This document shows, piece after piece, positions 1,199 through 43,296 of a stretch of 64,000 nt of DNA. The notes beneath the pieces were generated by a model, which saw nothing but the letters and a program-made list of their open reading frames with translations, made no database searches and was not told where the DNA came from. The stretch is from a virus. Location: IMG/VR virus record IMGVR_UViG_3300045988_056849. One strand, given 5' to 3'. Numbering within the stretch: position 1 is the first letter of the stretch; each line of letters begins with the position of its first letter. A program made the translations under genes and the position numbers.

Positions 1199-1203
1199 AG
1201 AGA

Positions 1204-6545: not shown

Positions 6546-6842
6546 ATGGACAATAGCAAAGAATATCTGCTTTGTGCAGCAATTCGTAGAGTAGAGCCGA
6601 GAGATTGCCCGAAAGTATATTGGGAACAATTCCACGACATCTACAAAATAGAATTGGGTTGGAGACATCCAGATATAATGCACCGATTTGGGAAGGAAGT
6701 ATCACGCAACCTGAATGACCAAGGCTTCTACACTTCCAAAGGACGTTTCGTGACAAGAGAGGAAGGATTGGAGATAGCAAGAGCCGCAGGTCAGGTTGAT
6801 AAGATAATTGGAGGAGTATTAACAAGTGAAGATTTATATTGA
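6546..6842 (+). CDS. hypothetical conserved phage protein (98 aa)
   Basis: ATG 6546 follows stop 6544. GFYTSKGRFVTREEGLEIARAAGQV motif, which I have seen in other phage proteins of unknown function. Confidence 0.55.
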   Translation: MDNSKEYLLCAAIRRVEPRDCPKVYWEQFHDIYKIELGWRHPDIMHRFGKEVSRNLNDQGFYTSKGRFVTREEGLEIARAAGQVDKIIGGVLTSEDLY

Positions 6843-7318
6843 TGCCTAAGATAATAATTTGTAGAGGTCTGCCAGGGTCAGGTAAAACTACTTGGGCGAA
6901 AGATTATGTTCAACGCAATATCTTCAATCCTGCGGTAAGAGTAAACCGAGACGACATAAGGAAGATGCTTGCTATAACATATAATACTTTGACCGAAGAG
7001 TTTGTGAAGGGAATGGAGCGAGATATGATAACAAACGCTCTAAACTTTGGATTTGACGTTGTAGTTGATGATACTAACATATATACTTCGGCAGCAGAGC
7101 TTATAGTAGCAGCCATAGAACAATCCGATTGGGAAACGGTAAAAGTTGAGGTCAAAAGTTTCTTTGATACTCCAATTGAAACTTGCGAAGATAGACAAAT
7201 GGAACGAAGTCCTCAAGAACGAGTACCAGACTATCGAATCAGGCAACTCATGGATTATTATGAGAAGTACGGAAAGAGATTTGAAAACTATATAAAAAGA
7301 AGTGAGTGTGTAATATGA
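6839..7318 (+). CDS. stand-alone polynucleotide-kinase-like P-loop kinase (T4 Pnk kinase-domain type)
   Basis: IIICRGLPGSGKTTWA (P-loop), RVNRDDIR, VVVDDTNI in the order and spacing of the T4 Pnk kinase half. No phosphatase domain. Confidence 0.7.
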   Translation: MMPKIIICRGLPGSGKTTWAKDYVQRNIFNPAVRVNRDDIRKMLAITYNTLTEEFVKGMERDMITNALNFGFDVVVDDTNIYTSAAELIVAAIEQSDWETVKVEVKSFFDTPIETCEDRQMERSPQERVPDYRIRQLMDYYEKYGKRFENYIKRSECVI

Positions 7319-19043: not shown

Positions 19044-20762
19044 ATGATAGCAACAGTACCAGACATAATTGCGAAAGCTCCTGTGACCTTGTTACAGTCT
19101 CCAATGCATCAATTGGAATGTCTCAATATAGTAGATGAGATAATTGACGGCATGGACGACAAGGGAATATTGGAGCTCATGCAAGGTTCAGGAGGAGACT
19201 TGGATTGGGTATTAGATAACTTGATGAAAGATACTTATCAGGTTATGTACACGGGTGACCCAAACATTGACTTCGCTCCGAAATATACAGATAGACTTTC
19301 ACAGTCTATCGAAGAAACATTGCGGACACGCAACCTTACTTACTTTATTACTTCGGTAATGCCCGACTTTCAATTGTCTTGGCATCATTTGGAATGGGGA
19401 GACTTGGTACACCGATACAATAAATTATGTATCAACGCTGCCCGTGACCATGGTAAGTCGTATTATTTCTCAAATGCCTATTGTGCTTGGAAGCTCTATT
19501 CCTACGCAAAGCCTAAATCAAGTGTATTCTCTGCCCGACCTACGAAGAGCAATTCCAATCGTGGGTATTTGTTTAGCTTCTCACTCCAGCAGTCCGTTGA
19601 CCTTATGGAGATTTTGAAAGGAACGATTGAGAGCAACGACATTCTCAAAGACAGATTGTATCCTGATTCAAGAAATAGCGGAGCGTGGGCGAGTACGAAC
19701 ATAGTATGTAGGAACGGAGCGAGGTTGACGTGTAAGGGATTTGGGTCATCAGTACGTGGTGCTCACCCATACTGGATAGTAGTAGATGATGGACTGAAAG
19801 ATAACGTCATATACAGTGCCCTACAAAGGCAGAAAAGTATAGACTATTTCCACGCTGTTATTATGAACATGCTCGTGCCAGGAGGACAAATCATTGTCGT
19901 TGGTACTCCGTTCCACGCTTCGGATTTATACGGAGACTTGAGAAGCAAGAGCATATTTGCTACACATAATAAGAAGGGTTGGTTTGTAATTGAATATCCT
20001 GCTATCTTCCCTGACGGACGTATATTGTGGCCACAGCGTTGGAGCTTCTTCGATTTGATGGACAAGAAAGCAACGCAAGGTAACATCATCTTCAGTCGTG
20101 AGAACTTATGCCGACCTATTACCAATGAGGCTTCTATATTCCCATTGAAAGTTTTGGAACGCTCTTTGGTACGTATGGAGAACTACACGTTGGTACGCAA
20201 TCGGGATGACTTCCCAATCAAGTTTAACAAAGTTGTTACAGGCTGTGACTTCGCAATATCTGCTAACGTAGGAAGCGACTACACCGTGTTCACGACTTGG
20301 GGAGTAGATGACGAAACAGGAGAGCGTTGGTTGCTAAACTTTTACCGAGATAAGGGCAAGACCTTCCACGAACAGATGCAAATATTGAAGGGAATCAACG
20401 CAAGATTCAGACCTGATAGCATGGTGATGGAGCAAAACACATTCCAACAGATATTCGTTCAGGAAAGCGATAAACAGGGGTTGCCAGTTATAGGACATAC
20501 CACTGGAATAGATAAGTACGACTTGAAAACAGGCTGGCCAGGATTGGCTATTGATTTTGAGAGAGGTAAGATACATATACCAACTGGAGATAAGTATTCA
20601 CAAGATGTAAAAGATTTGATTTTCTCTGACCTTGGTTCGGTAGCCTTTACGGATAAAGGACTTGAGTCAGTAGGAGAACATGACGACATCTCATCCAGCT
20701 TCTGGCTTGCTAAGTTAGGTGCTAATCTTATCACGACTGGTTTCAAATATACTTTCCTTTAA
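19044..20762 (+). CDS. terL: terminase large subunit
   Basis: Walker A-like CINAARDHGKSY, Walker B YWIVVDDGLKD, coupling motif VVGTPFH, and a C-terminal RNaseH-like nuclease region (GCDFAIS...DYTVFTTWG...GEHDDISSSFWLA). Confidence 0.85.
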   Translation: MIATVPDIIAKAPVTLLQSPMHQLECLNIVDEIIDGMDDKGILELMQGSGGDLDWVLDNLMKDTYQVMYTGDPNIDFAPKYTDRLSQSIEETLRTRNLTYFITSVMPDFQLSWHHLEWGDLVHRYNKLCINAARDHGKSYYFSNAYCAWKLYSYAKPKSSVFSARPTKSNSNRGYLFSFSLQQSVDLMEILKGTIESNDILKDRLYPDSRNSGAWASTNIVCRNGARLTCKGFGSSVRGAHPYWIVVDDGLKDNVIYSALQRQKSIDYFHAVIMNMLVPGGQIIVVGTPFHASDLYGDLRSKSIFATHNKKGWFVIEYPAIFPDGRILWPQRWSFFDLMDKKATQGNIIFSRENLCRPITNEASIFPLKVLERSLVRMENYTLVRNRDDFPIKFNKVVTGCDFAISANVGSDYTVFTTWGVDDETGERWLLNFYRDKGKTFHEQMQILKGINARFRPDSMVMEQNTFQQIFVQESDKQGLPVIGHTTGIDKYDLKTGWPGLAIDFERGKIHIPTGDKYSQDVKDLIFSDLGSVAFTDKGLESVGEHDDISSSFWLAKLGANLITTGFKYTFL

Positions 20763-20807: not shown

Positions 20808-21257
20808 ATGAAACAAAGAAAAGTAAACATTATCATCAAAGGCTACGGCAAAAAGCCTTTGTATGCGACTTCACATTCAGCAGGAGCTGACTTATATTCA
20901 GCCAACGCTTCGGATATTGTTCTTCAGCCGATGGAACGCAAAATCATTCCCACGGGTTTGTTTTTGGAACTTCCTATTGACGCTGAAGCTCAAATAAGAC
21001 CGAGAAGCGGATTGAGCGCAAAGAAAGGAATTGTAGCAATTCTTGGAACCATTGATGCCGATTATCAAGGAGAAGTTGGTATCATAGTAATTAATCTAAG
21101 CGATGAAGCGTTTGTAATCGAAAGAGGAGAACGACTTGCTCAGATGGTTCTGAATGGAGAAGGAGGATTGTTCCAAGGAGACTGGGTTGAGGTTGAAGAG
21201 TTTTCCAGAGAGAGCGAACGAGGAGCAGGTGGATTTGGACATACAGGTACAAAGTAA
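20808..21257 (+). CDS. dut: trimeric dUTP diphosphatase
   Basis: The five dUTPase motifs: HSAGADLYS, PRSGL, GTIDADYQGEVG, RLAQMV, ERGAGGFGHTG. Confidence 0.9.
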   Translation: MKQRKVNIIIKGYGKKPLYATSHSAGADLYSANASDIVLQPMERKIIPTGLFLELPIDAEAQIRPRSGLSAKKGIVAILGTIDADYQGEVGIIVINLSDEAFVIERGERLAQMVLNGEGGLFQGDWVEVEEFSRESERGAGGFGHTGTK

Positions 21258-21499: not shown

Positions 21500-22016
21500 C
21501 GATTTGACTAATGGGCTTGTTAATGCTATGCGTTATTCCGACCCAAATGTTGAATACCCAAGTTACGATAAGGCGAAACAAGATGATGGGGTAATGGCTG
21601 AATGGTTTTATCCCATTTTCAATGGTACCAATGACTTCTCCGAGCTTACAGCCATTCATATGTACACTACTCAGGAAGCTACGTTTGAGAACGTAGGTGA
21701 GCTGCTATTGGGCATTGCTTTGACTGAGATGAAACACTACGATAAGCTGTCAGACTTTATCCGAAAGATAGGAGGAAAGATTGACCAGAGATATAACAAC
21801 TCAGGCGTTACCGTAGGAAAGACCGCAGAAGAAGCGATTGAAATAGCAATCGGTGCGGAGGAGAAAACAATTGACTTCTATGAGAACTTGCAAAAGAAGC
21901 TCTTGAAGTTACAAGAAACGGAGACAATCAAGATAGCTCTTCAACTGCTTGCTAAATTAGTAGCGGATGAGGTAGTTCATCTGAAACTATTAAAAGAACA
22001 ATTAAAGAATGATTAA
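21453..22016 (+). CDS. ferritin-like (four-helix-bundle, rubrerythrin/Mn-catalase-type) protein
   Basis: E...EMKHY...and...EEKTIDFY...DEVVHL pairs, typical of di-metal ferritin-like folds. Start uncertain (21396 or 21453). Confidence 0.5.
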   Translation: MRDYAIKKPLSKNQLDDLTNGLVNAMRYSDPNVEYPSYDKAKQDDGVMAEWFYPIFNGTNDFSELTAIHMYTTQEATFENVGELLLGIALTEMKHYDKLSDFIRKIGGKIDQRYNNSGVTVGKTAEEAIEIAIGAEEKTIDFYENLQKKLLKLQETETIKIALQLLAKLVADEVVHLKLLKEQLKND

Positions 22017-23946
22017 CAAAATGAAATGTAACGGTATTGATTTGTTAGCAGACTATGTGTTCTTGTCTAAATACTCTCAAAGACGAGAGGATGGACGACT
22101 TGAACACTGGGATGAAACTATTGACCGTATCTACGAGATGCACAAGGTCAAGTTGAAACAGTTAGGTCTGCTTGGTGAAGAAACGGTTGCTATGATAGAA
22201 GAAGCAATGCGTTTGGAAGTTGATAAGAAAATCTTGTCTTCCCAGCGTGGGCGTCAGTTCGCTTCTCCTTCGGTAACGAGTGGAATATTGAAGCATGAAG
22301 CCAAGTTATACAATTGCTGTTCTACCTACGTTGACCGTGTAGAAGTATTCAGCGAAATCATGTATTTGCTTCTTTGTGGTTGCGGCGTTGGTTATTCCTT
22401 ACATAAGGAGTACATTGACAAGCTACCAATAGTCAAGCCGTATAACGGAGACCAAAGACCTCAATTTTTTGTTGAAGATAGTATCGAAGGATGGGCTGAT
22501 TCAATCCGAGAGCTTATGACGGCTCTATTTGAAGGCAAGTCCGCTGATATAGTCTTTGACGCTATCCGACCAGAAGGAGCGTTGATTGACGGTAAGTTCC
22601 TTGCACCTGGCCCAGAGCCGTTAATAAAAGCCCATAATCATATCAAAGAAGTCATGAAAGTCGCTCAAGGCAGAAAGCTCACGAGTATCGAAGTTCATGA
22701 CATTATTTGTTATATAGCCGACAGTGTTGTGAGCGGAGGGGTGAGACGTTCTGCTATGATAGCCTTGTTCGACAAAGACGATGAGTTGATGCTCCGAGCT
22801 AAGACAGGAAGCTGGTGGACGGACAATCCTCAAAGAGCTATGGCAAATAATAGTATTCTTGCTACTCTATCTGACCCACTGGGTTACGAGGAAATGAAAG
22901 ACAAGTTACAAGTTATCCGTCAGTTTGGAGAGCCAGGTTTTGTAAACGTAAAGAGTTTCAAATATACAGTCAACCCTTGCGGTGAGATTGTAATGGAGCC
23001 TGCTATCAACGGCAAGTCTGGATTTGCGTTCTGCAATCTTGTAGAGATAAATGCCGAGCGAGTTAAAACCAAAGAGGAGTTCTTGGAAGCGTGTCGTGTA
23101 GCTTCGTTCGTAGCAACCGTTCAGGCTCTTTATACTGACTTCAAATATCTGTCTCCTGCTTCACGGGAAATAGCCGAGCGTGATAGAGCTATCGGAGTGA
23201 GCATAACAGGCATATATGCCAATCCTATCCTTCGGGGTGAGGTATTAAGAGAAGGTGCGAAGGTAGTTTCAGAAACCAATGCGGAATGGGCAGCAATATT
23301 CGGTATAAATAAGAGCCGTACTTGTACGACAATTAAACCGAGCGGCAATGCTTCTTCTATTCTTGGTTTGTATTGTAGTGGCATTCATCCAGCTCATGCT
23401 GAAAAATATCTGCGTAGAGTTCGCATCAAAACTTATAGCCCAGAGTTCCTTGCTTTGAAAGATACTCCGTTGGTAAAAGTTCTACGAGGGGATGAGGCTG
23501 TGATAAGTTTCCCAATTGAGTCTGATGACCCGAATATGATATTCAAAGACGAGGTATCATCCGTTGAGCATCTCAAGTTTATCGGTATGGTAAAACATTA
23601 TTGGATAAACAAAGGAAGCGTTAATACCAAAGCCGTTGCTAACAATATATCCGCAACCGTTGAGGTGAAAGATGATGAGTGGGACGAAGTAGCAGCTGTT
23701 CTGTTTACCAACGATTATCTATTCACTGGCGTGAGCTTGTTACCGAAGATGGGCGACCAAATTTATGACAACGCTCCATTCCAACGTTTATCTTCCTCAG
23801 AAGTCGAAAGTGAGTACAATGCTATCAAAGAGTATCTTGATACCCACGAAGTAGATTTCAACGAGATAATGAGCGACCGTGAGAACTTCTATTCAGGCGA
23901 CATGGTAGCCGTAGGATGTTCGGGAGGAGCCTGTGAATTGAAATAG
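22009..23946 (+). CDS. nrdJ: class II (adenosylcobalamin-dependent) ribonucleotide reductase
   Basis: Active-site loop TVNPCGEIVMEP, TTIKPSGNAS, C-terminal redox tail GCSGGACELK. 645 aa. Confidence 0.8.
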   Translation: MINKMKCNGIDLLADYVFLSKYSQRREDGRLEHWDETIDRIYEMHKVKLKQLGLLGEETVAMIEEAMRLEVDKKILSSQRGRQFASPSVTSGILKHEAKLYNCCSTYVDRVEVFSEIMYLLLCGCGVGYSLHKEYIDKLPIVKPYNGDQRPQFFVEDSIEGWADSIRELMTALFEGKSADIVFDAIRPEGALIDGKFLAPGPEPLIKAHNHIKEVMKVAQGRKLTSIEVHDIICYIADSVVSGGVRRSAMIALFDKDDELMLRAKTGSWWTDNPQRAMANNSILATLSDPLGYEEMKDKLQVIRQFGEPGFVNVKSFKYTVNPCGEIVMEPAINGKSGFAFCNLVEINAERVKTKEEFLEACRVASFVATVQALYTDFKYLSPASREIAERDRAIGVSITGIYANPILRGEVLREGAKVVSETNAEWAAIFGINKSRTCTTIKPSGNASSILGLYCSGIHPAHAEKYLRRVRIKTYSPEFLALKDTPLVKVLRGDEAVISFPIESDDPNMIFKDEVSSVEHLKFIGMVKHYWINKGSVNTKAVANNISATVEVKDDEWDEVAAVLFTNDYLFTGVSLLPKMGDQIYDNAPFQRLSSSEVESEYNAIKEYLDTHEVDFNEIMSDRENFYSGDMVAVGCSGGACELK

Positions 23947-24396: not shown

Positions 24397-25878
24397 ATGG
24401 GAGCATTTATACCAAGTAAATATCAAAGAGCCGTTTACATCTATATTGAGAAGGGTAAAGGCAATGCGGTTATAGACGCAGTAGCAGGTTCAGGAAAATC
24501 TACAACGATTGTGAATGCGTTGAAACTTATTCCGAAGAACAAGCGAGTATTGTTTTTGGCGTTCAACAAGGCAATCGTAGAGGAACTGAAAATCAAAGTA
24601 GGTAATCTCAACAATGTAGATATTAAAACGCTACATAGTTTGGGAGCTTCGGCAACTATGCGAGCTTTGAACTCTCAGCTTCAGGTTGATAAATATACGG
24701 CTTGGGTTAATAATGGTATCAAATACTCTTCCCTTTCTCCGAAGTCAGACTTGTTACCTGAACAGATGTCAACTTGGAAAGGCAATATCTTGAAGCTCAT
24801 TGACCTTGGTAGAGTAAACTTGGTTAAGTCCGAGAAGGAATTGGAAGAGCTTGCTTGGAAACATAATATTGATTTGGAAGATAACGAGGTTGATATTGCT
24901 ATTAAGGGTATCAATTGGGGCGAAAGGGAAACGCAAGTCATAGACTTCACAGACATGATATACTTCCCGAACGTCAAACAGATAAAGATGTTCCAATACG
25001 ATTGGGTATTCATAGACGAGTGTCAGGACTTGAACGCTGCCCAAAGAAACTTGTTCTTGAAATGCTTGAAACCTAATGGTAGATTTGTAGCTGTTGGAGA
25101 CCCACGTCAGGCAATCTATGGTTTTGCTGGAGCGGACGTTGAAAGTTTCAACCTTTTGAAGAGACTTCCGCACACCGTGAAACTTCCTTTATCCGTATGT
25201 TACCGTTGCGATGGAGATATAATCGGAATGGCCAAAGAGATAGTGCCTCAGATAGAAGCAAGAGCAGGTGCGCCAGCAGGTGTAGTTAGTCGGGAGAGCG
25301 TTATGGCGGATGTTAAGGATGGTGATATGATACTTTGTAGGGTTTCAGCTCCGTTGGTTAAATTGTGTATGCAATATATCGGGAGAGGGGTGAAAGCGTA
25401 TGTGAAAGGAAGGGATATTGGAACCAATCTTATTAACATGATAAAGAAAACCAATCGCAAGCAGATTAAGGACGTAATGGAGAGACTTGAAAGGGAATTA
25501 TCACGGATAATCGGAAAGGTGGTAGCAAAGCAGGGATGCACCGAAGCTGAAGCGAAGGAACATGAAATGTATAAGAACTACGAGGACAAGTTGAGAGCAA
25601 TCGAAGTTCTTTCAGAAGGGTTGGCAACTTCCCAAGAAGTGATTGACCGCATAGACATGATTTTCTCCGATGATAACAAGAACGGTATTTGTTTGAGTAC
25701 GATACACAAGTCAAAAGGTTTAGAGAGCGACCGAGTATTCATCATATGTGAAGATAAGCTCTATTTGAAATATTGTATGACCGTTCCGTGGATGGCGGAA
25801 CAAGAACGCAACCTTGTCTATGTTGCGATAACAAGAGCCAAGCACTTTTTAGGATATATTCAAGACTTTGTAGCATAA
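24397..25878 (+). CDS. UvrD/PcrA-like superfamily 1 DNA helicase (paralog 2)
   Basis: AVAGSGKST, VFIDECQDL, VGDPRQAIYGFAGAD, LSVCYRC, STIHKSKGLE, YVAITRAKH. Collinear with 1204..2691. Confidence 0.85.
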   Translation: MGAFIPSKYQRAVYIYIEKGKGNAVIDAVAGSGKSTTIVNALKLIPKNKRVLFLAFNKAIVEELKIKVGNLNNVDIKTLHSLGASATMRALNSQLQVDKYTAWVNNGIKYSSLSPKSDLLPEQMSTWKGNILKLIDLGRVNLVKSEKELEELAWKHNIDLEDNEVDIAIKGINWGERETQVIDFTDMIYFPNVKQIKMFQYDWVFIDECQDLNAAQRNLFLKCLKPNGRFVAVGDPRQAIYGFAGADVESFNLLKRLPHTVKLPLSVCYRCDGDIIGMAKEIVPQIEARAGAPAGVVSRESVMADVKDGDMILCRVSAPLVKLCMQYIGRGVKAYVKGRDIGTNLINMIKKTNRKQIKDVMERLERELSRIIGKVVAKQGCTEAEAKEHEMYKNYEDKLRAIEVLSEGLATSQEVIDRIDMIFSDDNKNGICLSTIHKSKGLESDRVFIICEDKLYLKYCMTVPWMAEQERNLVYVAITRAKHFLGYIQDFVA

Positions 25879-26885: not shown

Positions 26886-27650
26886 ATGTCGGGAATAATT
26901 TACAAATTCACTATAATGAGCAGTTTTAGATATTTCGGTCATAAGCCGTTCTATGTAGGACAATTTATGCGGGATGTTTCAAAAGAACAATTTTTGAGAA
27001 ATGATTGTTTTGTATACGATGGTAGCGGTAAGACTTGGGAAAGATTTTGTAAAGGACTCAAAAGAAAGTTTCCAACCTGCTGGCGTAAACTAATCAAACG
27101 AGAAGTCTTGTTTTATTCAGAGAATTGTTCGCAGAAGGCTCTTGATAGAATGGAAGAGTATTTCATCAAACATGAGAAGTCTCATTACTCATACGAGGTA
27201 GGCGGTTGCAACATACTATGGGGAACTGCTAACAAGTTCGGTTCTGGAAGTCCTATGAAAGACCCAATGATTGCGGCTAAAGTTACTAAGCAATTACGAG
27301 GAAGAAGAGGAGCAAAAAGGTCAGAAGAAGGTAAGCGAAACATGTCTATTGCTGCTAAAAGGTCATGGGAGAATGCAAATAAGCGCAGAAGGTTAATTTC
27401 AAAGTCTATGTCTTCATATATGCAGAACGGAGGAAAGGAACATTTGTCCAGAGTTAAGAAAGGAAGAAAGTTCAGCGATGAACATAGAAGGAACATTGCT
27501 TTGAATCATGCTGATATTAGCGGTAAAAATCATCCTTGTTACGGTAAGCATTTCAAATGGATAACAAATGGTTTAGTGGAACAAAGATTGGATGAAGGCA
27601 AATCAATTCCTGAAGGTTTTCAATACGGTAGAATTAAATACAAGAAGTAA
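26886..27650 (+). CDS. free-standing GIY-YIG homing endonuclease with NUMOD3-like repeats
   Basis: GIIYKFT...KPFYVGQ (GIY...YVG) N-terminal motif. C-terminal repeats GSGSPMKDP, RGRRGAKRSEEGKRNMS, KGRKFSDEHRRNI, SGKNHPCYGK. Confidence 0.65.
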   Translation: MSGIIYKFTIMSSFRYFGHKPFYVGQFMRDVSKEQFLRNDCFVYDGSGKTWERFCKGLKRKFPTCWRKLIKREVLFYSENCSQKALDRMEEYFIKHEKSHYSYEVGGCNILWGTANKFGSGSPMKDPMIAAKVTKQLRGRRGAKRSEEGKRNMSIAAKRSWENANKRRRLISKSMSSYMQNGGKEHLSRVKKGRKFSDEHRRNIALNHADISGKNHPCYGKHFKWITNGLVEQRLDEGKSIPEGFQYGRIKYKK

Positions 27651-29560: not shown

Positions 29561-29577
29561 AAGTAAAATGTTACACT

Positions 29578-29919
29578 ATGCCAATAGATAATGATAATCC
29601 ACAAGTATGGAGCTACTTTAAGCGAGGAGATATTGTCAAGGATTCAGAAGATAGTGTTTGGGGCAATACTAAATTTGAAATCACTGGGTTTCATGGTAAT
29701 TGGTACTGTCCTTTATTATCAACGAATATATGCGGCAAGTTCTATCCCAGCGGCAATCCTCAGCGTTGTAATTTAGGAGTGAGAGAAGCAAGGTTAATTA
29801 ACGCAGCTCACCGACCTTTCAAAAGAATGAAAAAAGTTCCTTTGCTGAAACTAATGGCGAAAGGAAACGTGGAAGCGAGGAGAGAATTTGTTATGAGAGT
29901 AAATACAAAAACTTTATAA
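29578..29919 (+). CDS. hypothetical protein (113 aa)
   Basis: First ORF after hairpin element B. Cys-containing. No motif recognised. Confidence 0.55.
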   Translation: MPIDNDNPQVWSYFKRGDIVKDSEDSVWGNTKFEITGFHGNWYCPLLSTNICGKFYPSGNPQRCNLGVREARLINAAHRPFKRMKKVPLLKLMAKGNVEARREFVMRVNTKTL

Positions 29920-29922
29920 TTT

Positions 29923-31077
29923 ATGTTTGAACAAGCAGCATGGTATGATAAGCTCCCAAACGAGAGCTTGGAAGTGTACGAGCCTCATTTGAGATTATTC
30001 TTTGAGACTATGTACGAGCGACAAATGATTTGGAAACGTAGGTTCATAGACAAGAAGGAAAGACCTTGGACAGACAACAAGATATTCCAAGAGTCAAAAT
30101 TCACGAACGTGTACCGAGAACTTGACCGAAACAGTCAATGGCAAATCAAAAACATTCTTCTTGATGAAAGTCTTTCTTTGAAGAACTTGGTTTGGAAGAT
30201 GATGGTTTTCCGTTTCTTCAACAATCCTGAAACATTCGAGTTTGAACCGAAGGGAAAGAGCGTTCAACCCAGTCTATTCGGAGCACCTATCAAATCAGGA
30301 CTTAAACAAGCTCAATCTATGGACGAGCTTATTTCAGCCAAGAAATGGAAGAATGGTATTCCCGATTGGGAGGAGTATGACGAAGATGAATTCAGTCGTT
30401 TCATTGCGGGCGTTCGGAGTTCGGGTCAAAATCCATATACAACCGCTTACTTGATAAACTCTCAAGCAACACCTGGTCAGCCGAGAGATTATTGTTACAC
30501 AAGGGTTGTAATACCTCACCTGCATAAGAACGTAGGAAAGCTCATTGCTACGGTGATGAAAGCTAAAAGACCAGAAGATATTATTGAGTATCTGAAAACC
30601 TTCCCTGCGGTGGCGGATTTTATTGCTCATGAGTTCTATCAGGACTTCACATATATACCGAGATATACCAACCGTAAATTTATGAAGTTTGACCAAAACG
30701 ACTTCACGAACGTTGGGCCAGGTTGTAGTATAGGCATACGCCTTATTTATCCGAGCTTGAAAACTGTAAGAGAGCAAAAACAAGCTATCTACTGGTTGAA
30801 GGAAGCAGCAACCGAATGGCTTGAGAAAATTGGTAAAGAGAAGGGTGAGCCGTTTCCGTATCTTGATTGGGACAAAGAGAGTGGAGAATATTACACTTTC
30901 AGTCGCCAAGAGTATGAGGAAGATGAATTGAACCGTGATGTGCTATATACTGAAATAACCCTTCACCAGATTGAGATGTGGTTATGCGAGTTCCAGAAAT
31001 ATTGGAAGATGATTATTGGAGAAGGCAAACAGCGCAGCAAATTTCAACCGAGAAGCAAATCAATTATTTCAAAATAA
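29923..31077 (+). CDS. alpha-glutamyl/putrescinyl thymine pyrophosphorylase (aGPT-Pplase)-like DNA base hypermodification protein
   Basis: N-terminal signature YERQMIWKRRFIDKKERPWTDNKIFQESKFTNVYRELDRNSQWQIKNIL. This matches the ER..I..R....PWT.D.I....KFTN.YRE.DR.SQ core I recall for this family. Recognition by eye only. Confidence 0.55.
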   Translation: MFEQAAWYDKLPNESLEVYEPHLRLFFETMYERQMIWKRRFIDKKERPWTDNKIFQESKFTNVYRELDRNSQWQIKNILLDESLSLKNLVWKMMVFRFFNNPETFEFEPKGKSVQPSLFGAPIKSGLKQAQSMDELISAKKWKNGIPDWEEYDEDEFSRFIAGVRSSGQNPYTTAYLINSQATPGQPRDYCYTRVVIPHLHKNVGKLIATVMKAKRPEDIIEYLKTFPAVADFIAHEFYQDFTYIPRYTNRKFMKFDQNDFTNVGPGCSIGIRLIYPSLKTVREQKQAIYWLKEAATEWLEKIGKEKGEPFPYLDWDKESGEYYTFSRQEYEEDELNRDVLYTEITLHQIEMWLCEFQKYWKMIIGEGKQRSKFQPRSKSIISK

Positions 31078-31079
31078 CA

Positions 31080-32129
31080 ATGGACAAGAAATTAACAGAA
31101 TTTTTTGAGAAGAAAGAATTTGAGGTTGTAGAAAAGAAAACTACAACCCAAGTTCTTATTCAGAACTTACTTGCGTTCAGTGTACGTGAGAAGAAGGGAG
31201 GGTTGTTTGATATTTCAATCAACATAGTAAAGGACGAAGAAGAAAAGGAGAAGCTGAGAAAGCGTATCAACCGTGAAGGCTCTTCGGAGAACGAAGGTTG
31301 GAACATTGACTTTGAGAAAACTCCGATACTTCACAACGTAACGATAAGCCAATTTGAAGCCTTCTGTAAGCAAACTAAGCTCATTGCTCAGGTGAAACGT
31401 CTTTCGGAGTTCCGAGAGGTACAGAGCGACTTCACGTTGGCAGTAGCAGAAAAGGACGGCAAAACTTTGAAGTGGCGTTCAAACCTTCCTACGGAGAAGC
31501 ATATTGTTGATGCTGTATTCAAAGGCAGCGAGTACACTCACCGTTCAGTAGGTTTGGGCGGTTTAACTCTTACCAAGAAAGACGTTGTATTGGACTTGGG
31601 TGGTAATATCGGAGCTTTCACTTGCGACATCTTCGATAAAGTCAAAAAGGTCATTGTATTTGAACCTGAAGATGTGAACTATGAATTTCTATCTACGAAT
31701 ATAGAAGACAACGGAGCAAAGAACGTAATTGCCCACAAACAAGCCGTAGTTGGTAATGACGATAAGGTGCGTGACTTCTATCTGGGTAAAGCTCCGTATT
31801 ATTATTCATTCTTGGTAAAACATAACCGCAAGCGAGTTCCTGTTGAGTGCGTGAATATCAACGAGGTTATGAAGAAGTACAACCCTACCAAGATGAAGGT
31901 TGATATTGAAGGCTCTGAATGGGAAGTTCTTATCAACTGCACGGACTTCGGGAATGTTGACCAGATAATCTTTGAGTACAACTTCGATATGAATATGGAC
32001 TTGAAAGAGGACTTCAAGCGGTTCAAGGCTCTTCGGAAACATCTCAAGAAACACGGCTTTGACGTTCAGGAGATGGAGCGAGATATGAAGCAGAATTGGA
32101 ATTTGGTTTTCATGGTAACAAAGAAATAA
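31080..32129 (+). CDS. FkbM-family SAM-dependent methyltransferase with an uncharacterised ~170-aa N-terminal extension
   Basis: VLDLGGNIGAFT (SAM motif I), VIVFEPEDVNYEFLSTNIEDNG, MKVDIEGSEWEVL. Start moved to ATG 31080, 3 nt after the upstream stop. Confidence 0.75.
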   Translation: MDKKLTEFFEKKEFEVVEKKTTTQVLIQNLLAFSVREKKGGLFDISINIVKDEEEKEKLRKRINREGSSENEGWNIDFEKTPILHNVTISQFEAFCKQTKLIAQVKRLSEFREVQSDFTLAVAEKDGKTLKWRSNLPTEKHIVDAVFKGSEYTHRSVGLGGLTLTKKDVVLDLGGNIGAFTCDIFDKVKKVIVFEPEDVNYEFLSTNIEDNGAKNVIAHKQAVVGNDDKVRDFYLGKAPYYYSFLVKHNRKRVPVECVNINEVMKKYNPTKMKVDIEGSEWEVLINCTDFGNVDQIIFEYNFDMNMDLKEDFKRFKALRKHLKKHGFDVQEMERDMKQNWNLVFMVTKK

Positions 32130-32132
32130 GCT

Positions 32133-32465
32133 ATGCCGATTTCAAAGAAAATAAAAGAACTCAAGGAGCCATTGGAGGTAGATTTACAGCTGATGGCTTC
32201 TGAGCTTGATACTTCGGTTAAGAACATGAAGTATTTGTCGAAAGATATGATGTCCGATGCTACGTCAATTGATGCGTTCGATGCGTTGGTTGAGGACATA
32301 GAAAGAGGAGAAGGAAGCGAGGTGACAACGTTTGATGACAATACCATTTTATATGAGTATTTGGACGAAGCTGTTGTTGTACATAACGTTCTTGGCGTTC
32401 GTTACGTTCTATTTGATAGTATGGTGACGCAGAAGATAGAAAACAAGTTGGACAGTTATAGATAG
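32133..32465 (+). CDS. hypothetical acidic protein (110 aa)
   Basis: Starts 4 nt after the methyltransferase stop. Confidence 0.55.
   Translation: MPISKKIKELKEPLEVDLQLMASELDTSVKNMKYLSKDMMSDATSIDAFDALVEDIERGEGSEVTTFDDNTILYEYLDEAVVVHNVLGVRYVLFDSMVTQKIENKLDSYR
32452..32461 (+). promoter_or_regulatory. ACAGTTATAG box, copy 4
   Basis: Exact 10-mer overlapping the last codons of 32133..32465, 34 nt upstream of ATG 32496. Confidence 0.55.
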
Positions 32466-32495
32466 TTCAAACATTCATTTATAAATTTCAAGTAT

Positions 32496-33110: not shown

Positions 33111-33122
33111 AACGACAAGAAT

Positions 33123-33647: not shown

Positions 33648-33671
33648 GAAACAAGAAGTCAAATGAAGAAA

Positions 33672-33760: not shown

Positions 33761-35494
33761 ATGGGTAATTCATATGCTAAACAGTTAGATGCCATTGCTC
33801 TTGCAGAAGCGAAGCTGAAGGCAAAAAGGTTTAGGACACTTGAGAAAGCTCTAAGGTCAGACTCACCAGAGGATATGATAAAGGCTACTCAGGTGTTCAA
33901 CCAAATTCAGCCAAAAGTGGAGCAAAATACAAAGGCATTTTTCATTGACCCATTGGAGTTCAATTCCAATTTAGGGTACAAAGATAAGCCGTTTTCATTG
34001 ACGTACACTACGTTGAAGAGAATGTCGAAGACACCTATCATAAATTCAATTATCAAAACAAGAAAGAATCAAGTAGCAGACTTCGCAGAGCCTCAAGAAA
34101 ACAAGTATTCAACTGGCTTCGTTATCCGAAAGAAACCGAAATTTGGAATTGAACAAAAGATGGATAACAAAGACCGAAAGATTGCGTATGCTATTACTGA
34201 ATTTATCTTGAAGGGCGGTAATGTTAGTCAATGGGAGCATGACGACTTCGATACGTTTATCAGAAAGATTGTTGATGACTCTTTGACTTACGACCAATTA
34301 ACTTTCGAGTGTATTCGCAACCGAAGAGGACAATTGGAGAGTTTCATGGCTACTGATGCCGCAACTTTCCGAATGGCTGATTCATACTTTGATAAGGATT
34401 ATGATAATGTTTTCTTCCAAAGAAACGGAGCGAATGTATGGCAAGATAGGAACGATTATGGGCCAAAGGTTTATGGCTATTATCCTGCTTATGTTCAGGT
34501 GTATCAGAATGTCAAGGTCAATGAGTTCTATCCTTGGGAGCTTTGTTTTGGAGTTCGCAATCCTTCTACTTCAATATACTCAAATGGGTATGGTTGTTCC
34601 GAGCTTGAAGAGCTTATCAACGTTGTAACATCTATGCTTTGGGGAGATGAATACAATAGACGTTTCTTCAGTCAAGGTTCAGCTCCGAAAGGTTTATTGC
34701 GTATTAAGGGAACAAACAACGAAGCAGCACTTCAGCAATTCAAACAACAGTGGCAGTCCATGATTACAGGAGTAATGCAGTCTTGGAAAACTCCTGTCGT
34801 GGAAGCGGACGTGGATTGGATAGACCTTCAGAAGAACAACCGTGATATGGAGTATAGTTCTTGGATGGAATATCTTATCAAACTATCTTGTGCCATATAT
34901 TCAATTGACCCTTCCGAGATAGGATGGGACATCAGCCGTTCTTCGGGGAACGGAGGATTGTTTGAAGGAAGTCAGGAACAACGCCTGAAACATTCCAAAG
35001 ACAAGGGTTTGTATCCACTTCTGAAATTCCTTCAGAGGAAAATCAACAAATATATCATTGAGCAAATCAATCCTGATTTTGAACTTGTATTCGTAGGTTT
35101 GAACGGCTTGACTATCGAAGAAGAGCTTGATATGGACATCAAGAAAGTAGGCAGCTTCATGACCGTAAACGAAGCACGTGAGAAATACGAGATGAAACCG
35201 CTTGAGTTCGGAGACGTACCGACCAATGCTACTCTTATTCAGAACAAGAATGCGGAGATGATGGCTAAACAAGGTGGTCAAGGAATGGAGATGGATGAGA
35301 ACGGAAACATCAAACCGAGTTCCGAGAAGAAAGGAGAGGAGCCTGACGCAGAAGAGGAAGATGAGGAGCAAAATCCTTTTGACTTGTATGCCGAAGAAAA
35401 TGACGAGGAGGACACTAATAAGGGTGGACTGAGAGAAACGTTTGTAAAAGCATTTGATAACTTTCTAAATAACGAAGAAAATGGAAGTAACTAA
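33761..35494 (+). CDS. portal protein
   Basis: 577 aa with an acidic C-terminal tail. It heads the morphogenesis block and lies upstream of a MuF-like gene. Called on size and synteny plus general resemblance to portals, not on a diagnostic motif. Confidence 0.6.
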   Translation: MGNSYAKQLDAIALAEAKLKAKRFRTLEKALRSDSPEDMIKATQVFNQIQPKVEQNTKAFFIDPLEFNSNLGYKDKPFSLTYTTLKRMSKTPIINSIIKTRKNQVADFAEPQENKYSTGFVIRKKPKFGIEQKMDNKDRKIAYAITEFILKGGNVSQWEHDDFDTFIRKIVDDSLTYDQLTFECIRNRRGQLESFMATDAATFRMADSYFDKDYDNVFFQRNGANVWQDRNDYGPKVYGYYPAYVQVYQNVKVNEFYPWELCFGVRNPSTSIYSNGYGCSELEELINVVTSMLWGDEYNRRFFSQGSAPKGLLRIKGTNNEAALQQFKQQWQSMITGVMQSWKTPVVEADVDWIDLQKNNRDMEYSSWMEYLIKLSCAIYSIDPSEIGWDISRSSGNGGLFEGSQEQRLKHSKDKGLYPLLKFLQRKINKYIIEQINPDFELVFVGLNGLTIEEELDMDIKKVGSFMTVNEAREKYEMKPLEFGDVPTNATLIQNKNAEMMAKQGGQGMEMDENGNIKPSSEKKGEEPDAEEEDEEQNPFDLYAEENDEEDTNKGGLRETFVKAFDNFLNNEENGSN

Positions 35495-40022: not shown

Positions 40023-40228
40023 AAAAGATTAAACACTTTGGTAAATGGTTATTGACCGTAGTCATTACCGTTCTTTATTTGGTAACATTCTTTTGGGTAG
40101 GACATGTATTGTACTATCTATCGAAGGTGTTCAAAATTATCGGACATACGTTCATGCTTGAGTTCGCTTCGGCAAAAGACGAGTTAAGAACGTTTTGGAA
40201 ACATTATACAAATTTAGGAGACATATGA
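40019..40228 (+). CDS. small membrane protein (holin-like size)
   Basis: ATGA overlap. TM segment WLLTVVITVLYLVTFFWVGHVLYYL. Confidence 0.45.
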   Translation: MKKIKHFGKWLLTVVITVLYLVTFFWVGHVLYYLSKVFKIIGHTFMLEFASAKDELRTFWKHYTNLGDI

Positions 40229-41157
40229 TTTTCAATCAAGGACAGATACAAGATATGTTATCAATTCTCAAAAGGTACGAATTGGTATTCATAGCAGGTC
40301 AGTTAGGATTGGATTATCTTTCTCAATCGGATAAGGATATACTGATTGCTGCTGGAATCAATCTTGATAAGTATAAGAACAAGAAAGGAGTAATTGAGCA
40401 CGCATTCCTTTTCGGTATATTGGCTGAGGCTATCGGGGATGCGAGAGCAAAGAAAATGACTTATGCTCAGTTTCAGAAGTTTCTTGCTTCGGGTAATTTC
40501 ATACCGCTTACCGAAGAAGAGGAGTTTGCCCTTCAAACCGTAAAGAATAGAGCATACACCGACATCACCAGTTTAGGAAACCGAATGAGGACTGGGTTGA
40601 GTAACGTAGTATTGAGAAATAATCAACAACAGACTCTGGTAGTTCAGAATATGATTAAGCAAAAGACTATCAAAGCCGTTGAACTCCGTATGGGAGCGAG
40701 AGGACTTGCGGCAGACCTTGCCGAGACTTCTCAGGATTGGGAAGTTGATTGGTTGAGAATTGCTTACTATCTTACCCACGAAGCCTATAATTCAGGACGT
40801 GCTCAGAGTATCTTGAAAGAGTACGGAGCTGATGCTGAGGTTTATTTCGATGTTTACCCAGGTGCTTGTCAGCGTTGTCGGGAGCTTTACTTGACTGACC
40901 CTGAAGACCCAGATAGCGAGCCGATTGTTTTCAAACTCAAAGATATTATTGCTAATGGTAACAATATCGGGCGAAAGGTTAAGGAGTGGAAGCCGACTAT
41001 TTCACCAACTCACCCTTATTGTCGTTGTACGATAAATCACAAGAAAGCAGGTTTTGCTTGGGATGCAGAGCTGAGAGCCTTCACCAAACCTATCAAGAAA
41101 ACTTCCACTAATCCAAAGTTAAAAGGAGTGAAGTTGAATATAAAAGTATCGAAATAA
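40225..41157 (+). CDS. MuF / SPP1 gp7-like minor head (head morphogenesis) protein
   Basis: C-terminal signature YPGACQRCRELYL ... ISPTHPYCRCT. ATGA overlap start at 40225. Confidence 0.7.
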   Translation: MIFNQGQIQDMLSILKRYELVFIAGQLGLDYLSQSDKDILIAAGINLDKYKNKKGVIEHAFLFGILAEAIGDARAKKMTYAQFQKFLASGNFIPLTEEEEFALQTVKNRAYTDITSLGNRMRTGLSNVVLRNNQQQTLVVQNMIKQKTIKAVELRMGARGLAADLAETSQDWEVDWLRIAYYLTHEAYNSGRAQSILKEYGADAEVYFDVYPGACQRCRELYLTDPEDPDSEPIVFKLKDIIANGNNIGRKVKEWKPTISPTHPYCRCTINHKKAGFAWDAELRAFTKPIKKTSTNPKLKGVKLNIKVSK

Positions 41158-41165: not shown

Positions 41166-41843
41166 ATGAAAACTGAAAAATTGTTACTCATCCAGCCGCA
41201 TAGTGATGATATTCTCTTTTGTTGTTCTCATCTGCTGTTCCTTCCTCAATACGAGGTTCAGGTGCTGACCGTAGAGAATGACCCAAAGAGAATAGCGGAG
41301 GATGAAAAATTGTTTGATTTTCTCAATATTCCGTTCCATCATCTTGAATTAGATTTTCATGATGAAAGTTATTACGAGTTCCATAAGAATTACAAAGAAG
41401 TAACGGTGGAAGCAACGTATAAACATTTGAATGAATACTTCGGGAGGGAAACGCTGAACGAGATTGAGGAAACGCTTGTAAATTGGGTTAGAAAGTTCTT
41501 GAAAAAGAACAAAGGGTACACGGTGGTAGCTCCTTGGGGAGTTGGTCACCCATTTCATCTTTTCGTTCGGGAGACTTTACAAGGAGCGTTGAGTTACATG
41601 GAGTATTATCGGGAGTTCCCTCACTCCTATAAAAGACGTTCTCAACCTCAAGTAGAGAAACAAAAGCAAGAATACACTCTGAAACGTTCCGTAACAGTTG
41701 AGGAGTTTCATGAAGTGAAGTGGAAACTTGCTTCCAAATTCTATCGTTCTCAATCAGGTTTACAGTTCTACGAACAGGGTTATATTAAGAAACAGCTGCC
41801 CGAAGAGATATATGTGAGGGAAGCGGATGAATTACCATTTTGA
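41166..41843 (+). CDS. PIG-L/LmbE-family de-N-acetylase
   Basis: LLLIQPHSDDILF (AHPDD-type motif), RIAEDEKLFDFLNIPFHHLELDFHDES, WGVGHPFHLF (HxxH). Confidence 0.65.
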   Translation: MKTEKLLLIQPHSDDILFCCSHLLFLPQYEVQVLTVENDPKRIAEDEKLFDFLNIPFHHLELDFHDESYYEFHKNYKEVTVEATYKHLNEYFGRETLNEIEETLVNWVRKFLKKNKGYTVVAPWGVGHPFHLFVRETLQGALSYMEYYREFPHSYKRRSQPQVEKQKQEYTLKRSVTVEEFHEVKWKLASKFYRSQSGLQFYEQGYIKKQLPEEIYVREADELPF

Positions 41844-41844
41844 T

Positions 41845-43296
41845 ATGAAGATATTTATTGCTGATTTTCAGATAGCGAAATATGGCGGTATTGTAGAATA
41901 TGTTGCCAGTATGCTCAAAGCGTTCCGAGATTTGGGACACGAAGTAGATGTTGCTCAAATGACTCCTGCTTCTACTACCCAGAACGCTTATAACAAGAAA
42001 GTGAAAGAATTTGAAAGCGGAGAACATCAACGCAAGATTAAGTTCCATTCTCAGGCAGGAGGTTACGAGAAAGATGAAGTAACAGGTTATTGGCGCAATA
42101 ACTATTATGGATATTTCTTGCCTCCAAGTAACCGTATCGGAGTATATGAGAAGAATGCGGTTGAGAGGTGGAAGGAGCTGGTGAAGGATGCTGATATAAT
42201 TCTTTGGAATTTCATGCCCACGAAAAGTTCTGCTTGGAATAAGAAGGGCGTGGAGTTCGATTTTTGGCATAAGTTCTTTGACCTTCCTTCTTCGATTAAA
42301 CAAGTGTTCTTGGTACACGATGCTTATTTCAATGTAAGAGCTTCCAATATATCGGCTCTGAAAGATAAGATAATGTTTATGGCTTGTGCTCATTTAGCTG
42401 CTTATCAATGCTGTTCTGAAATAGGTATTCCGAGAAGTTTGCTATTGAATCCACGATACCTACCCAGCGGAGCTAAGATGACCGTGAAGATGATGAATAA
42501 ACGCAAGGAGGACTTTTTTGCTGCTCATATGTTTAAGTCTATGAAGCATATGGAGGAGCTGATTGCTGCCGTTCCGTATATTCAGAAGGGAGAGGAGGAA
42601 CGTTTCAAAGTAAAGATTGCTGGGACAGGCATAGAATATAACTATATGACCAGCGAGACGAAAACAAAGAGTAACTATATGTGTACTACGAAGCGTGACC
42701 CAGACCTTCCGAAGAAACTTGACGGCAAACTTTCTCTTTGGGATAGAGCCGAGAAGTTTGGAATGGAGTACATGGGTCAGATGTCGGGCGGTGAAGTTAT
42801 AGATACTTTGAGAAATACGAAGTTTGCTATTGACCCATCTTGGGCTGAACATTATGCACGTTATTGTCGTACCCATATAAACGGCTTTATTATCGAAGCG
42901 ATGTTATGCGGTGCTTATCCTGTTTTGCGTGATTATAGAGGACTGGCGAAGGTGGAAGGAAAGGAAATATATGACCCACTATTCGAGAACGTCAGAGCAA
43001 TCATTATTCCGTGGGATGCTACTCCGAAAGAATTTGCTGAGGCTTTGAAAAAGGCTGCTAAAATGTCTCCTGCTAAATTCTTGAAAGATACAAAGTACAA
43101 CTTTGAGTTAGTACACGAATTGTTTAATGCTACGAAGAATGCCGAAGAGATAATCAGACTGGTTAAAGGAGGAAGAAAGCTGGTAAGGAAAGAACTTGAA
43201 AAAGGCAAAGACTCACCGAATGTTAAGAAGATAACTCATGAAATCATGGAAGAGTTTTATCATATAGAACTTCCAATTGAGTGGGAAACGGATTGA
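41845..43296 (+). CDS. GT-B fold (GT4-like) glycosyltransferase
   Basis: N-terminus MKIFIADFQIAKYGGIVEYVASMLKAFRDLGHEVDV. C-terminal sugar-donor region NGFIIEAMLCGAYPVLRD. Start at ATG 41845, 2 nt after the upstream stop. Confidence 0.65.
   Translation: MKIFIADFQIAKYGGIVEYVASMLKAFRDLGHEVDVAQMTPASTTQNAYNKKVKEFESGEHQRKIKFHSQAGGYEKDEVTGYWRNNYYGYFLPPSNRIGVYEKNAVERWKELVKDADIILWNFMPTKSSAWNKKGVEFDFWHKFFDLPSSIKQVFLVHDAYFNVRASNISALKDKIMFMACAHLAAYQCCSEIGIPRSLLLNPRYLPSGAKMTVKMMNKRKEDFFAAHMFKSMKHMEELIAAVPYIQKGEEERFKVKIAGTGIEYNYMTSETKTKSNYMCTTKRDPDLPKKLDGKLSLWDRAEKFGMEYMGQMSGGEVIDTLRNTKFAIDPSWAEHYARYCRTHINGFIIEAMLCGAYPVLRDYRGLAKVEGKEIYDPLFENVRAIIIPWDATPKEFAEALKKAAKMSPAKFLKDTKYNFELVHELFNATKNAEEIIRLVKGGRKLVRKELEKGKDSPNVKKITHEIMEEFYHIELPIEWETD

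Follow-up and report, generated by a model that had tools for sequence, protein, structure and literature searches.

A clade-1 aGPT-Pplase-like gene and an optional FkbM methyltransferase gene in an uncultured gut myovirus lineage: candidates for a 5-hydroxymethyluracil-based DNA hypermodification

In the 64,000-nucleotide stretch of viral DNA analysed here (IMG/VR record IMGVR_UViG_3300045988_056849, in the following called the window), a gene for a protein resembling the alpha-glutamyl/putrescinyl thymine pyrophosphorylases (aGPT-Pplases), here termed Pplase1, is directly followed by a gene for an FkbM-type methyltransferase that uses S-adenosylmethionine (SAM). The question is whether both genes form a dedicated pair for a thymidine hypermodification, as a preliminary description of this region had proposed, or whether they are neighbours for another reason. 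We regard it as an evenly balanced proposition that the lineage performs a hypermodification based on 5-hydroxymethyluracil (hmU) with interchangeable tailoring enzymes, in which the methyltransferase would be optional and not part of an obligate pair with the Pplase. A context of thymidine hypermodification and an involvement of the FkbM enzyme are plausible. A literature search revealed no report linking an FkbM enzyme to DNA hypermodification, in agreement with the earlier statement that no characterised pathway of this kind employs one.

Both open reading frames (ORFs) are present with the motifs described for them. ORF 29923..31077 starts with ATG and encodes a protein of 384 amino acids, which includes the stretch YERQMIWKRRF...QWQIKNIL. 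The second ORF, as obtained mechanically (30978..32129), opens with GTG; the ATG at position 31080 yields a methyltransferase of 349 amino acids carrying VLDLGGNIGAFT, VIVFEPEDVNYEFL and MKVDIEGSEW. The gene callers applied to public contigs set the same boundaries, including the start at 31080. The spacer between both genes comprises 2 nucleotides (TAA-ca-ATG) and not 3, as had been stated before; spacers of 3 nucleotides occur at the junctions of orf113 with the Pplase1 gene and of the methyltransferase gene with orf110. Thus, four genes (orf113, Pplase1-like, methyltransferase, orf110) are tightly packed with spacers of 2-3 nucleotides. Every gene of the window lies on the plus strand, which applies to all window coordinates given below, and the GC skew is positive throughout.

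The Pplase1-like protein had only one Pfam match at E<0.01, namely PF18723 (E 8.3e-49, 166.9 bits versus a cutoff of 25). This family was formerly named aGPT-Pplase clade 1; its current Pfam name is 'HMUDK_hel', for the helical domain of a 5-hydroxymethyldeoxyuridine (5-hmdU) DNA kinase. In a calibration with known phage proteins, PF18723 matched M6 gp55, a ViI-like gp160 homologue and the C-terminal half of SP10 gp186. The clade-2 family PF18724 ('amino acid:DNA transferase') matched M6 gp51, PaMx11 gp46 and PhiW-14 gp109, and the kinase family PF18748 matched M6 gp54 and the N-terminal half of SP10 gp186. In the same scan (E<0.01), ORF 29923..31077 showed no match to PF18724. The AlphaFold2 (AF2) model of the protein, calculated with 38 homologues, is all-alpha (predicted local distance difference test, pLDDT, 86.8; predicted template modelling score, pTM, 0.87). 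Its best Foldseek match in BFVD was SP10 gp186 (E 4.8e-12, TMq 0.64), and further matches were helical-domain proteins of phiRSL1 (E 3e-8), a Nodularia phage and PhiW-14 (E 2.6e-5), with TM values from 0.55 to 0.64; the first clade-2 protein in this list had an E value of 1.1. Homologues from cultured phages (about 25% identity) belong almost exclusively to thymidine-hypermodifying groups (ViI-like phages, Vibrio phages, SP10). Judged by its sequence, the product of ORF 29923..31077 is a clade-1 aGPT-Pplase and not one of the characterised clade-2 amino-acid:DNA transferases. The superfamily assignment of the preliminary description therefore holds, but the displacement chemistry cited with it is that of clade 2.

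The gene is a core gene of the lineage. It was present in synteny in all of the 80 related loci from IMG/VR that were compared, with the conserved gene order 5'-3' exonuclease, orf221, orf113, Pplase1-like, ..., orf110, ..., portal. The segment H348-Q-I-E351-M-W-L-C355-E356-F-Q-K359-Y360 is invariant in the alignment of 38 lineage members; the putative catalytic motif E351-M-W-L-C355-E356-F-Q-K359 is encoded at 30973..30999. The residues E, C, E, K and Y are likewise unchanged in ViI-like gp160 homologues, the C-terminal half of SP10 gp186 (gp186C) and M6 gp55, and a similar motif of the clade-2 enzymes reads E-V-E-T-(I/V)-L-C-K-W-K. In PaMx11 gp46, E243 and C247 line the active site (PMC11472151), and M6 gp51 and ViI gp247 both require their Cys and Glu. 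This is suggestive of an equivalence between E351 and C355 of the clade-1 protein and the catalytic Glu and Cys of clade 2. The clade-1 protein resembles the clade-2 enzymes in a look-alike Glu-x3-Cys arrangement with a charged residue and Lys at a comparable C-terminal position, in a predicted helical fold of remote and non-significant similarity and in a presumed hmU-derived substrate. In contrast, the kinase making the clade-2 substrate was not found in the genome of the window.

Regarding the supply of hmU, the preliminary description had noted dut and nrdJ, and both identities were confirmed: a dUTPase is encoded at 20808..21257 (PF00692, E 3.8e-26) and a class II RTPR-type reductase at 22009..23946 (TIGR02505, E 5.5e-65). 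A dUTPase is a nucleotide-pool enzyme expected in thymine-replacing phages. The reported absence of a dUMP hydroxymethylase from the window was also correct, as no thymidylate-synthase homologue is encoded within the 64 kb; the scan beyond the window, however, revealed one elsewhere in the genome. In the relative IMGVR_UViG_3300045988_050215 (L091), which like L102 is near-identical to the window genome, a gene for a thymidylate-synthase-family protein of 416 amino acids (L091:5877-7127; PF00303, E 1.2e-24) lies directly upstream of the gene for a DnaE-type polymerase of 1196 amino acids. Among 50,697 phage records, the top matches of this protein were SPO1 gp29, SP8, SP82G, SP10 (45% identity, annotated as dUMP hydroxymethylase), CP-51-like phages and M6 gp58. 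It has 'PCN', 'NRSND', the uracil-specifying Asn and a C-terminal helical extension of ~130 amino acids in common with SP10 gp188 and M6 gp58. The C-terminus of ThyA is missing in a comparison with the E. coli sequence, and the scores of 61-75 bits are opposed to ThyA equivalog cutoffs of 108-327. Over the catalytic core, the identity to SPO1 gp29, SP8, SP10 gp188 and M6 gp58 amounts to 36-47%; the lineage enzyme differs from these in that its gene adjoins that of a DnaE-type polymerase and its activity is predicted. The position 5' of DnaE is kept across the lineage, and a gene for a YfbR-type 5'-deoxynucleotidase is located 3' of DnaE; in M6, an HD hydrolase is likewise encoded 3' of the homologous hydroxymethylase gene. 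On these grounds, the genome very probably makes 5-hmdUMP.

PHROG 800 ('terminase small subunit') gave a partial match confined to the Pplase1-like part, and this identity was rejected. The label spread from the RefSeq names of M6 gp54 (NC_007809) and SP10 gp186 (NC_019487), both of which are mislabelled as 'terminase small subunit', and this error reached PHROG 800. The same label is also found on clade-1 homologues in some Klebsiella phage records and on gp15 of a Rhodoferax phage (NC_029061), encoded 3' of a clade-2 transferase gene. If one follows the PHROG 800 match, the corresponding names in GenBank and the location of the gene ~2.7 kb 5' of the portal gene, the phage could have ordinary DNA, the PF18723 protein being a structural or packaging factor and the thymidylate-synthase homologue a plain thymidylate synthase. 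This is very improbable, since M6 gp54 and SP10 gp186, to which the name traces back, are experimentally 5-hmdU DNA kinases (PMC8989533), the thymidylate-synthase homologue is far below the ThyA cutoffs and groups with hydroxymethylases, and the invariant Cys/Glu motif argues for an enzyme.

The stand-alone Pnk-like kinase mentioned in the preliminary description is indeed an AAA_33/Pnk/PSTK-like P-loop kinase (6839..7318; AAA_33, E 2e-18). Its best phage matches are polynucleotide kinases, and tblastn with M6 gp54 and SP10 gp186 gave no more than a weak likeness at the level of the P-loop, with 24% identity and an E value of 0.036 for M6 gp54. Membership in the 5-HMUDK family was rejected, as the protein does not match PF18748, whereas M6 gp54 and the N-terminal half of SP10 gp186 (gp186N) do. 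It is nevertheless the sole candidate for an hmU kinase. For the search for absent partners, the genome was reconstructed from the window and the remaining ~35 kb, which were rebuilt from L085, L087, L091 and L102, and was searched by tblastn with M6 and SP10 proteins.

The methyltransferase matches PF05050 (Methyltransf_21; E 5.6e-9, 36.8 bits versus a cutoff of 22.7) and TIGR01444 (fkbM_fam; E 4.9e-19, 69.2 bits versus 37.7), and its FkbM identity is thereby firmly supported. The AF2 model (pLDDT 91.2) consists of an alpha/beta domain at about residues 1-115 (31080..31424), followed by a class I methyltransferase fold; the methyltransferase module (31425..32129) contains the SAM motif I VLDLGGNIG at residues 170-178 (31587..31613). 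Of the extension of ~170 amino acids described before, only an N-terminal domain of ~115 amino acids, which has no Pfam or NCBIfam match, folds separately; residues ~120-170 are already part of the conserved methyltransferase module. The N-terminal domain accompanies the methyltransferase domain down to 45% identity, including homologues in a radical-SAM/TAGT context, and is missing in short homologues of 205 amino acids. By its sequence, the two-domain methyltransferase is an old protein. With the FkbM O-methyltransferases (PDB 2PY6) it shares the domain, SAM motif I, DIEGSE and the class I fold; unlike these, it has the additional N-terminal domain and is encoded by a phage beside genes of the DNA-modification type. 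The classical activity of FkbM enzymes is the O-methylation of natural products and sugars. A classical DNA methyltransferase was rejected as an identity, since a regex scan found neither motif IV, (D/N/S)PP(Y/F/W), nor PCQ together with ENV.

The methyltransferase gene occurs in 20 of the 80 loci and is therefore an accessory gene. It is missing from the other 60 (in a few of them the locus ends too early for a decision), even in relatives whose Pplase1 is 93% identical. In these, orf110 is located directly 3' of the Pplase1 gene; in L004, for example, the orf110 homologue starts at 6160, shortly after the end of Pplase1 at 6155. The Pplase1 and methyltransferase genes of the window are so closely spaced on account of operon packing at a hot spot of insertion, and the idea of a translationally coupled pair acting as a functional unit could not be maintained. 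Such an obligate two-step path, in which the Pplase would displace the phosphate of kinase-activated hmU with an amino acid or a polyamine and the FkbM enzyme would methylate the adduct, is quite improbable. It could draw on the common operon with its 2-nucleotide spacing, on the superfamily membership and the Cys/Glu motif of the Pplase, which hold, and on L143, a 90-kb relative in which a 45%-identical methyltransferase is again encoded 3' of the Pplase1 gene. Besides the many loci without a methyltransferase, it is contradicted by the reconstructed genome, in which neither a 5-HMUDK nor a clade-2 transferase was found, and by two further arrangements of the genes: in L145 and L198 a methyltransferase with the same N-terminal domain stands away from Pplase1, and in L026-L028 the pair is split by a glycosyltransferase-like gene.

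These arrangements are informative for the reading with an optional methyltransferase. In L145 and L198, the methyltransferase (52-55% identity) occupies another hot spot, between a radical-SAM/SPASM gene and a gene for a PIG-L-TAGT fusion (TAGT E 4e-12). On L147, an unrelated contig of 35 kb, the gene for a single-domain homologue of 205 amino acids has a Glyco_trans_1_2 gene on one side and a kinase/thymidylate-synthase pair on the other, with a dUTPase gene nearby. The ORF that separates Pplase1 from the methyltransferase gene in L026-L028 (L026:6097-6933) encodes 278 amino acids and matches phage proteins annotated as glucosyl transferase or 'beta-glucosyl-HMC-alpha-glucosyltransferase' (E 4e-18 to 4e-7), including those of LuckyBarnes and phiRSL1; a PDB sequence search with the L026 protein gave no informative match. 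Thus, the methyltransferase family was found next to a glycosyltransferase in three independent adjacencies. With respect to the TAGT and T-even glucosyltransferases for 5-hydroxymethylcytosine (hmC), relatives of the window place the same methyltransferase beside a TAGT gene or a 'beta-glucosyl-HMC glucosyltransferase'-like gene. The window itself differs in having a sub-threshold GT-B candidate 10 kb away, and the base would be hmU and not hmC, as indicated by the Asn of the hydroxymethylase-like protein.

Distant single-domain FkbM-like genes were also observed in marine podoviruses, just 5' of the terminase gene, in Pelagibacter phage HTVC112P (L211) and cyanophage MED4-117 (L212). They adjoin a gene for a ParB-like nuclease/SNF2-like protein or a DNA methylase. 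Such neighbours hint at DNA as a possible substrate of phage FkbM-like enzymes in general.

Beside the Pplase1 locus, a second region of the window contains putative sugar-related genes. In a core block consisting of o320 (40195..41157), two tentatively assigned genes, o655 (43351..45318) and o790 (45321..47693), the first assigned gene (41166..41843) encodes a PIG-L/LmbE-like putative sugar de-N-acetylase (PIG-L E 0.088 over the full domain). The second (41827..43296) encodes a putative GT-B (GT4-like) glycosyltransferase (Glycos_transf_1 E 3.6e-4; N-terminal Glyco_transf_4 E 2.4e-3) with both domain halves in the right order. Both are core genes. Among the lineage homologues, PIG-L was found in 4 of 13 (best E 3e-5) and TAGT in two (E 2e-13), and Glyco_transf_4 was found in 7 of 10 homologues of the GT-B-like protein. 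PDB sequence searches with the PIG-L-like and GT-B-like proteins gave no informative match.

Relatives of the window differ in this block. In 11 loci a radical-SAM/SPASM gene is inserted 5' of the PIG-L-like gene, and this insertion occurs in none of the 18 loci with a methyltransferase gene beside Pplase1 (Fisher p 1.3e-4, without correction for phylogeny). In some relatives, a radical-SAM gene and an FkbM methyltransferase gene are inserted together at this site, and the GT-B gene is replaced by a TAGT-PIG-L fusion in L192, L198 and L203; the fusion is also present in L145. This pattern of radical-SAM, TAGT, GT-B and methyltransferase genes looks like a set of interchangeable tailoring enzymes. 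Of the partners that the preliminary description suggested searching for, radical-SAM genes are present in relatives, and no enzyme dependent on pyridoxal phosphate (PLP) was detected in the reconstructed genome.

A comparable combination of genes is found in the Ralstonia phage phiRSL1 (L214; ORF230-238, NC_010811.2 160043-174744). ORF230 encodes a hydroxymethylase-like protein (34% identity, E 8e-35, PCN and NRSND present), and the adjoining ORF231 a clade-1 homologue (hhalign probability 97.5%, E 5e-12). These are followed by genes for a galactose-3-O-sulfotransferase-like protein, three glycosyltransferases, NDP-sugar pyrophosphorylase/nucleotidyltransferase and an APS kinase. Clade-1 genes therefore occur in sugar-type clusters together with a group-transfer tailoring enzyme, and the cluster is a candidate for the synthesis of a sulfated glycosyl-hmU. 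Hydroxymethylase-like and clade-1 genes, glycosyltransferases and a group-transfer tailoring enzyme are common to phiRSL1 and the lineage, and a phiRSL1 glycosyltransferase has a homologue in the ORF that splits the Pplase1-methyltransferase pair in L026-L028. The differences are that phiRSL1 has a sulfotransferase and an APS kinase in place of a methyltransferase, and that its genes are clustered, whereas those of the window genome are dispersed. In the Brevibacterium phage LuckyBarnes, a gene for a thymidylate-synthase homologue is followed by two genes for such glycosyltransferases, next to the polymerase gene. Literature searches found nothing on the DNA chemistry of phiRSL1 and nothing on hmU in Bacteroides or gut phages.

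The clade-1 proteins ViI gp160, PhiW-14 gp72, SP10 gp186C and M6 gp55 agree with that of the window in PF18723, the all-alpha predicted fold, the E...CE..KY motif and a genome with a hydroxymethylase-like gene. However, the window protein is ~25% identical to them, neither a PF18748 partner or fusion nor a clade-2 paralogue was found in its reconstructed genome, and its gene lies between those of a 5'-3' exonuclease and the portal and not in a modification cluster.

In the mechanism considered most likely here, 5-hydroxymethyl-dUTP would replace dTTP by means of the putative dUMP hydroxymethylase, the YfbR-type 5'-deoxynucleotidase and the dUTPase, and hmU would be modified in the DNA after replication, with the product of ORF 29923..31077 as the core enzyme acting on the DNA base. 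By analogy to clade 2 and as far as the motif allows a suggestion, Cys355 might attack C6 of a flipped hmU or activated hmU, assisted by Glu351 and Glu356, and the resulting exocyclic methylene might be captured by a nucleophile or a hydride. The core PIG-L-like/glycosyltransferase module (41166..43296) would probably add or trim a sugar. The FkbM methyltransferase would act as an optional tailoring enzyme, encoded at the insertion hot spot 3' of the Pplase1 gene. Substrate recognition is probably the task of its N-terminal domain, and the methyl acceptor is most likely a hydroxyl group or an amine of the appended group, most plausibly of a sugar, as the gene neighbourhoods suggest. Individual strains may in this way obtain their own version of the modified base, one that host nucleases do not attack.

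Several observations weigh against this interpretation. Concerning the clade-1 enzyme, the searches of the reconstructed genome yielded no PF18748 kinase, PF18724 transferase or PLP enzyme, so that the known activation step is unaccounted for. The local hhalign alignment of clade 1 with clade 2 places E351 on E243 and C355 on C247 but is non-significant (E 0.14), and the global mode gave no meaningful alignment. Foldseek against the PDB yielded nothing significant for the Pplase1-like model: QNG1/DUF2419 matched weakly, and PUGT 8Z2M appeared at rank 2 with weak values (E 0.75, probability 0.33, TM 0.32/0.39), followed by the queuine-salvage glycosylase-like 7UGK; searching PDB sequences with the Pplase1 profile likewise gave no relevant match. 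Furthermore, Pfam now casts the PF18723 domain as the helical part of a kinase. In experiments with M6 lysates, the kinase gp54 and the clade-2 protein gp51 were sufficient for amino-acid transfer, and the glycinyl-thymidine step proceeded without the clade-1 protein gp55; in ViI, the clade-2 protein gp247 was shown to be necessary, which was never established for the clade-1 protein gp160 (PMC8989533).

These data might also be explained if the clade-1 protein is no group transferase but reverts hmU or activated hmU to thymine, or is a non-catalytic protein or an accessory that accompanies a kinase. The adducts would then stem solely from glycosyltransferases and be tailored by the methyltransferase. 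The fusion or adjacency of clade 1 to the kinase in SP10 and M6, the conversion of the clade-2 intermediate to thymidine by borohydride and the clade-1 gene embedded in the glycosyltransferase cluster of phiRSL1 would fit such a function. The thymine of PhiW-14 reportedly also derives from hmU after replication. On the other hand, SP10 makes glutamyl-thymine with only a clade-1 domain (Table 3 in PMC5889632), which argues that clade 1 can transfer groups; moreover, neither a kinase partner nor a reductant-binding feature was identified for the protein of the window. A role of this kind is therefore considered improbable.

Concerning the tailoring enzymes, the PIG-L and glycosyltransferase assignments of the window fall below the Pfam thresholds, and the block is located 3' of the portal gene amid uncharacterised genes, so that it could act on virion proteins and not on DNA. 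The PDB fold neighbours of the methyltransferase are generic (E ~1e-6: TYW2/Trm5, RumA/TrmA, fibrillarin, CbiT), and all co-occurrence counts come from related genomes without correction for phylogeny. Accordingly, the methyltransferase, and possibly the PIG-L/glycosyltransferase module too, might be a moron for a virion or host-surface glycan or might methylate RNA or protein, with the Pplase1 site simply being an insertion hot spot. The classical substrates of FkbM enzymes, the patchy distribution of the gene, the similarity of its fold to RNA methyltransferases and CbiT, although non-specific, and the setting of the block, which is the same in L145, point in this direction. However, the neighbouring glycosyltransferases in other phages are of the DNA type (TAGT E 4e-12; 'beta-glucosyl-HMC glucosyltransferase'-like, E 4e-18 to 1e-12), the neighbours in L147 are a thymidylate-synthase homologue and a dUTPase, and the distant FkbM-like genes of the cultured podoviruses adjoin those of a ParB-like nuclease or a DNA methylase and not structural genes. 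A function apart from DNA thus appears unlikely, though it deserves consideration.

Going beyond hmU-based hypermodification with an optional methyltransferase, the lineage might make a hitherto undescribed hmU-derived base, for example an (amino)glycosylated one that is methylated in some strains. It would be formed via a clade-1 Pplase without a canonical 5-hmdU DNA kinase and be diversified by swaps of tailoring enzymes (FkbM, radical-SAM/SPASM, GT-B, TAGT, GT-A-like) at the two hot spots. This more specific proposal is tentative, and we consider it possible but doubtful.

The genome to which the window belongs is that of a ~99-kb myovirus of an abundant uncultured gut lineage. The Pplase1-like protein has an exact match on an ENA contig of 98,831 bp (ERZ28666920 scaffold_57). 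This contig, read on its reverse strand, is collinear with the window, which crosses the contig ends with an offset of ~55 bp; this implies that the genome is circular or terminally redundant. Hundreds of homologues with at least 68% identity are encoded on contigs of 90-125 kb, and one of the window's tail proteins has index entries in 234 blocks of the public collection. The gene content of the lineage includes baseplate, sheath-initiator, DnaE-type polymerase, RecA, SbcCD-like, HU, dUTPase and ferritin-like proteins. The terminase is 35% identical to that of the Bacteroides phages SJC03 and DAC19; blastn of positions 29500-33700 against the 50,697 phage records gave no match, and there is no cultured close relative.

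Of the small genes flanking the pair, orf113 (29578..29919) lies directly 5' of the Pplase1-like gene, is conserved with 35-100% identity in almost all of the 80 loci and has no Pfam, PHROG or NCBIfam match. The likewise conserved orf110 occupies 32133..32465. PHROG and Pfam scans gave no assignment for orf113, orf110, orf204, orf174, orf221 and most genes at 35.7-47.7 kb. About 13 kb separate the genes for the large terminase (19044..20762) and the portal (33761..35494); this stretch contains genes for the dUTPase, a ferritin-like protein, the class II reductase, a UvrD helicase, DUF7168, a NUMOD3 endonuclease-like protein and a 5'-3' exonuclease as well as the Pplase1/methyltransferase operon. 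Two paralogous UvrD/SF1 helicase genes are present in the window (1132..2691 and 24397..25878). Several genes resemble GIY-YIG/NUMOD3 homing endonucleases (26886..27650 in the window; L087:4845-5534 and 8498-9163), and near such genes relatives differ in length by ~2 kb, which is consistent with mobile insertions. In L102, positions 3336-7343 encode a putative tail fibre of 1335 amino acids with an N-terminal Mtd_N (major tropism determinant) domain (E 5e-11). A protein of 422 amino acids (9872..11140) contains a long low-complexity stretch rich in Lys, Ala and Glu, which causes spurious matches to other loci and to 43351..45318.

So far, a handful of cultured phages are known to hypermodify thymidine, and only the route via clade-2 transferases has been worked out. 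A lineage that possesses clade 1 alone together with an hmU-generating gene is therefore a natural test case for the role of clade 1. If the proposed undescribed base exists, it would provide the first function for clade-1 enzymes and a role in DNA chemistry for FkbM methyltransferases. The lineage is common in public metagenomes, and close relatives differ by single tailoring genes, so that natural variants could assign the chemistry gene by gene. If the DNA of gut phages does bear bulky and variable thymine adducts, this would affect the evasion of restriction and CRISPR systems and bias sequencing and quantification in viromics, and it would add to the enzymes available for DNA labelling.

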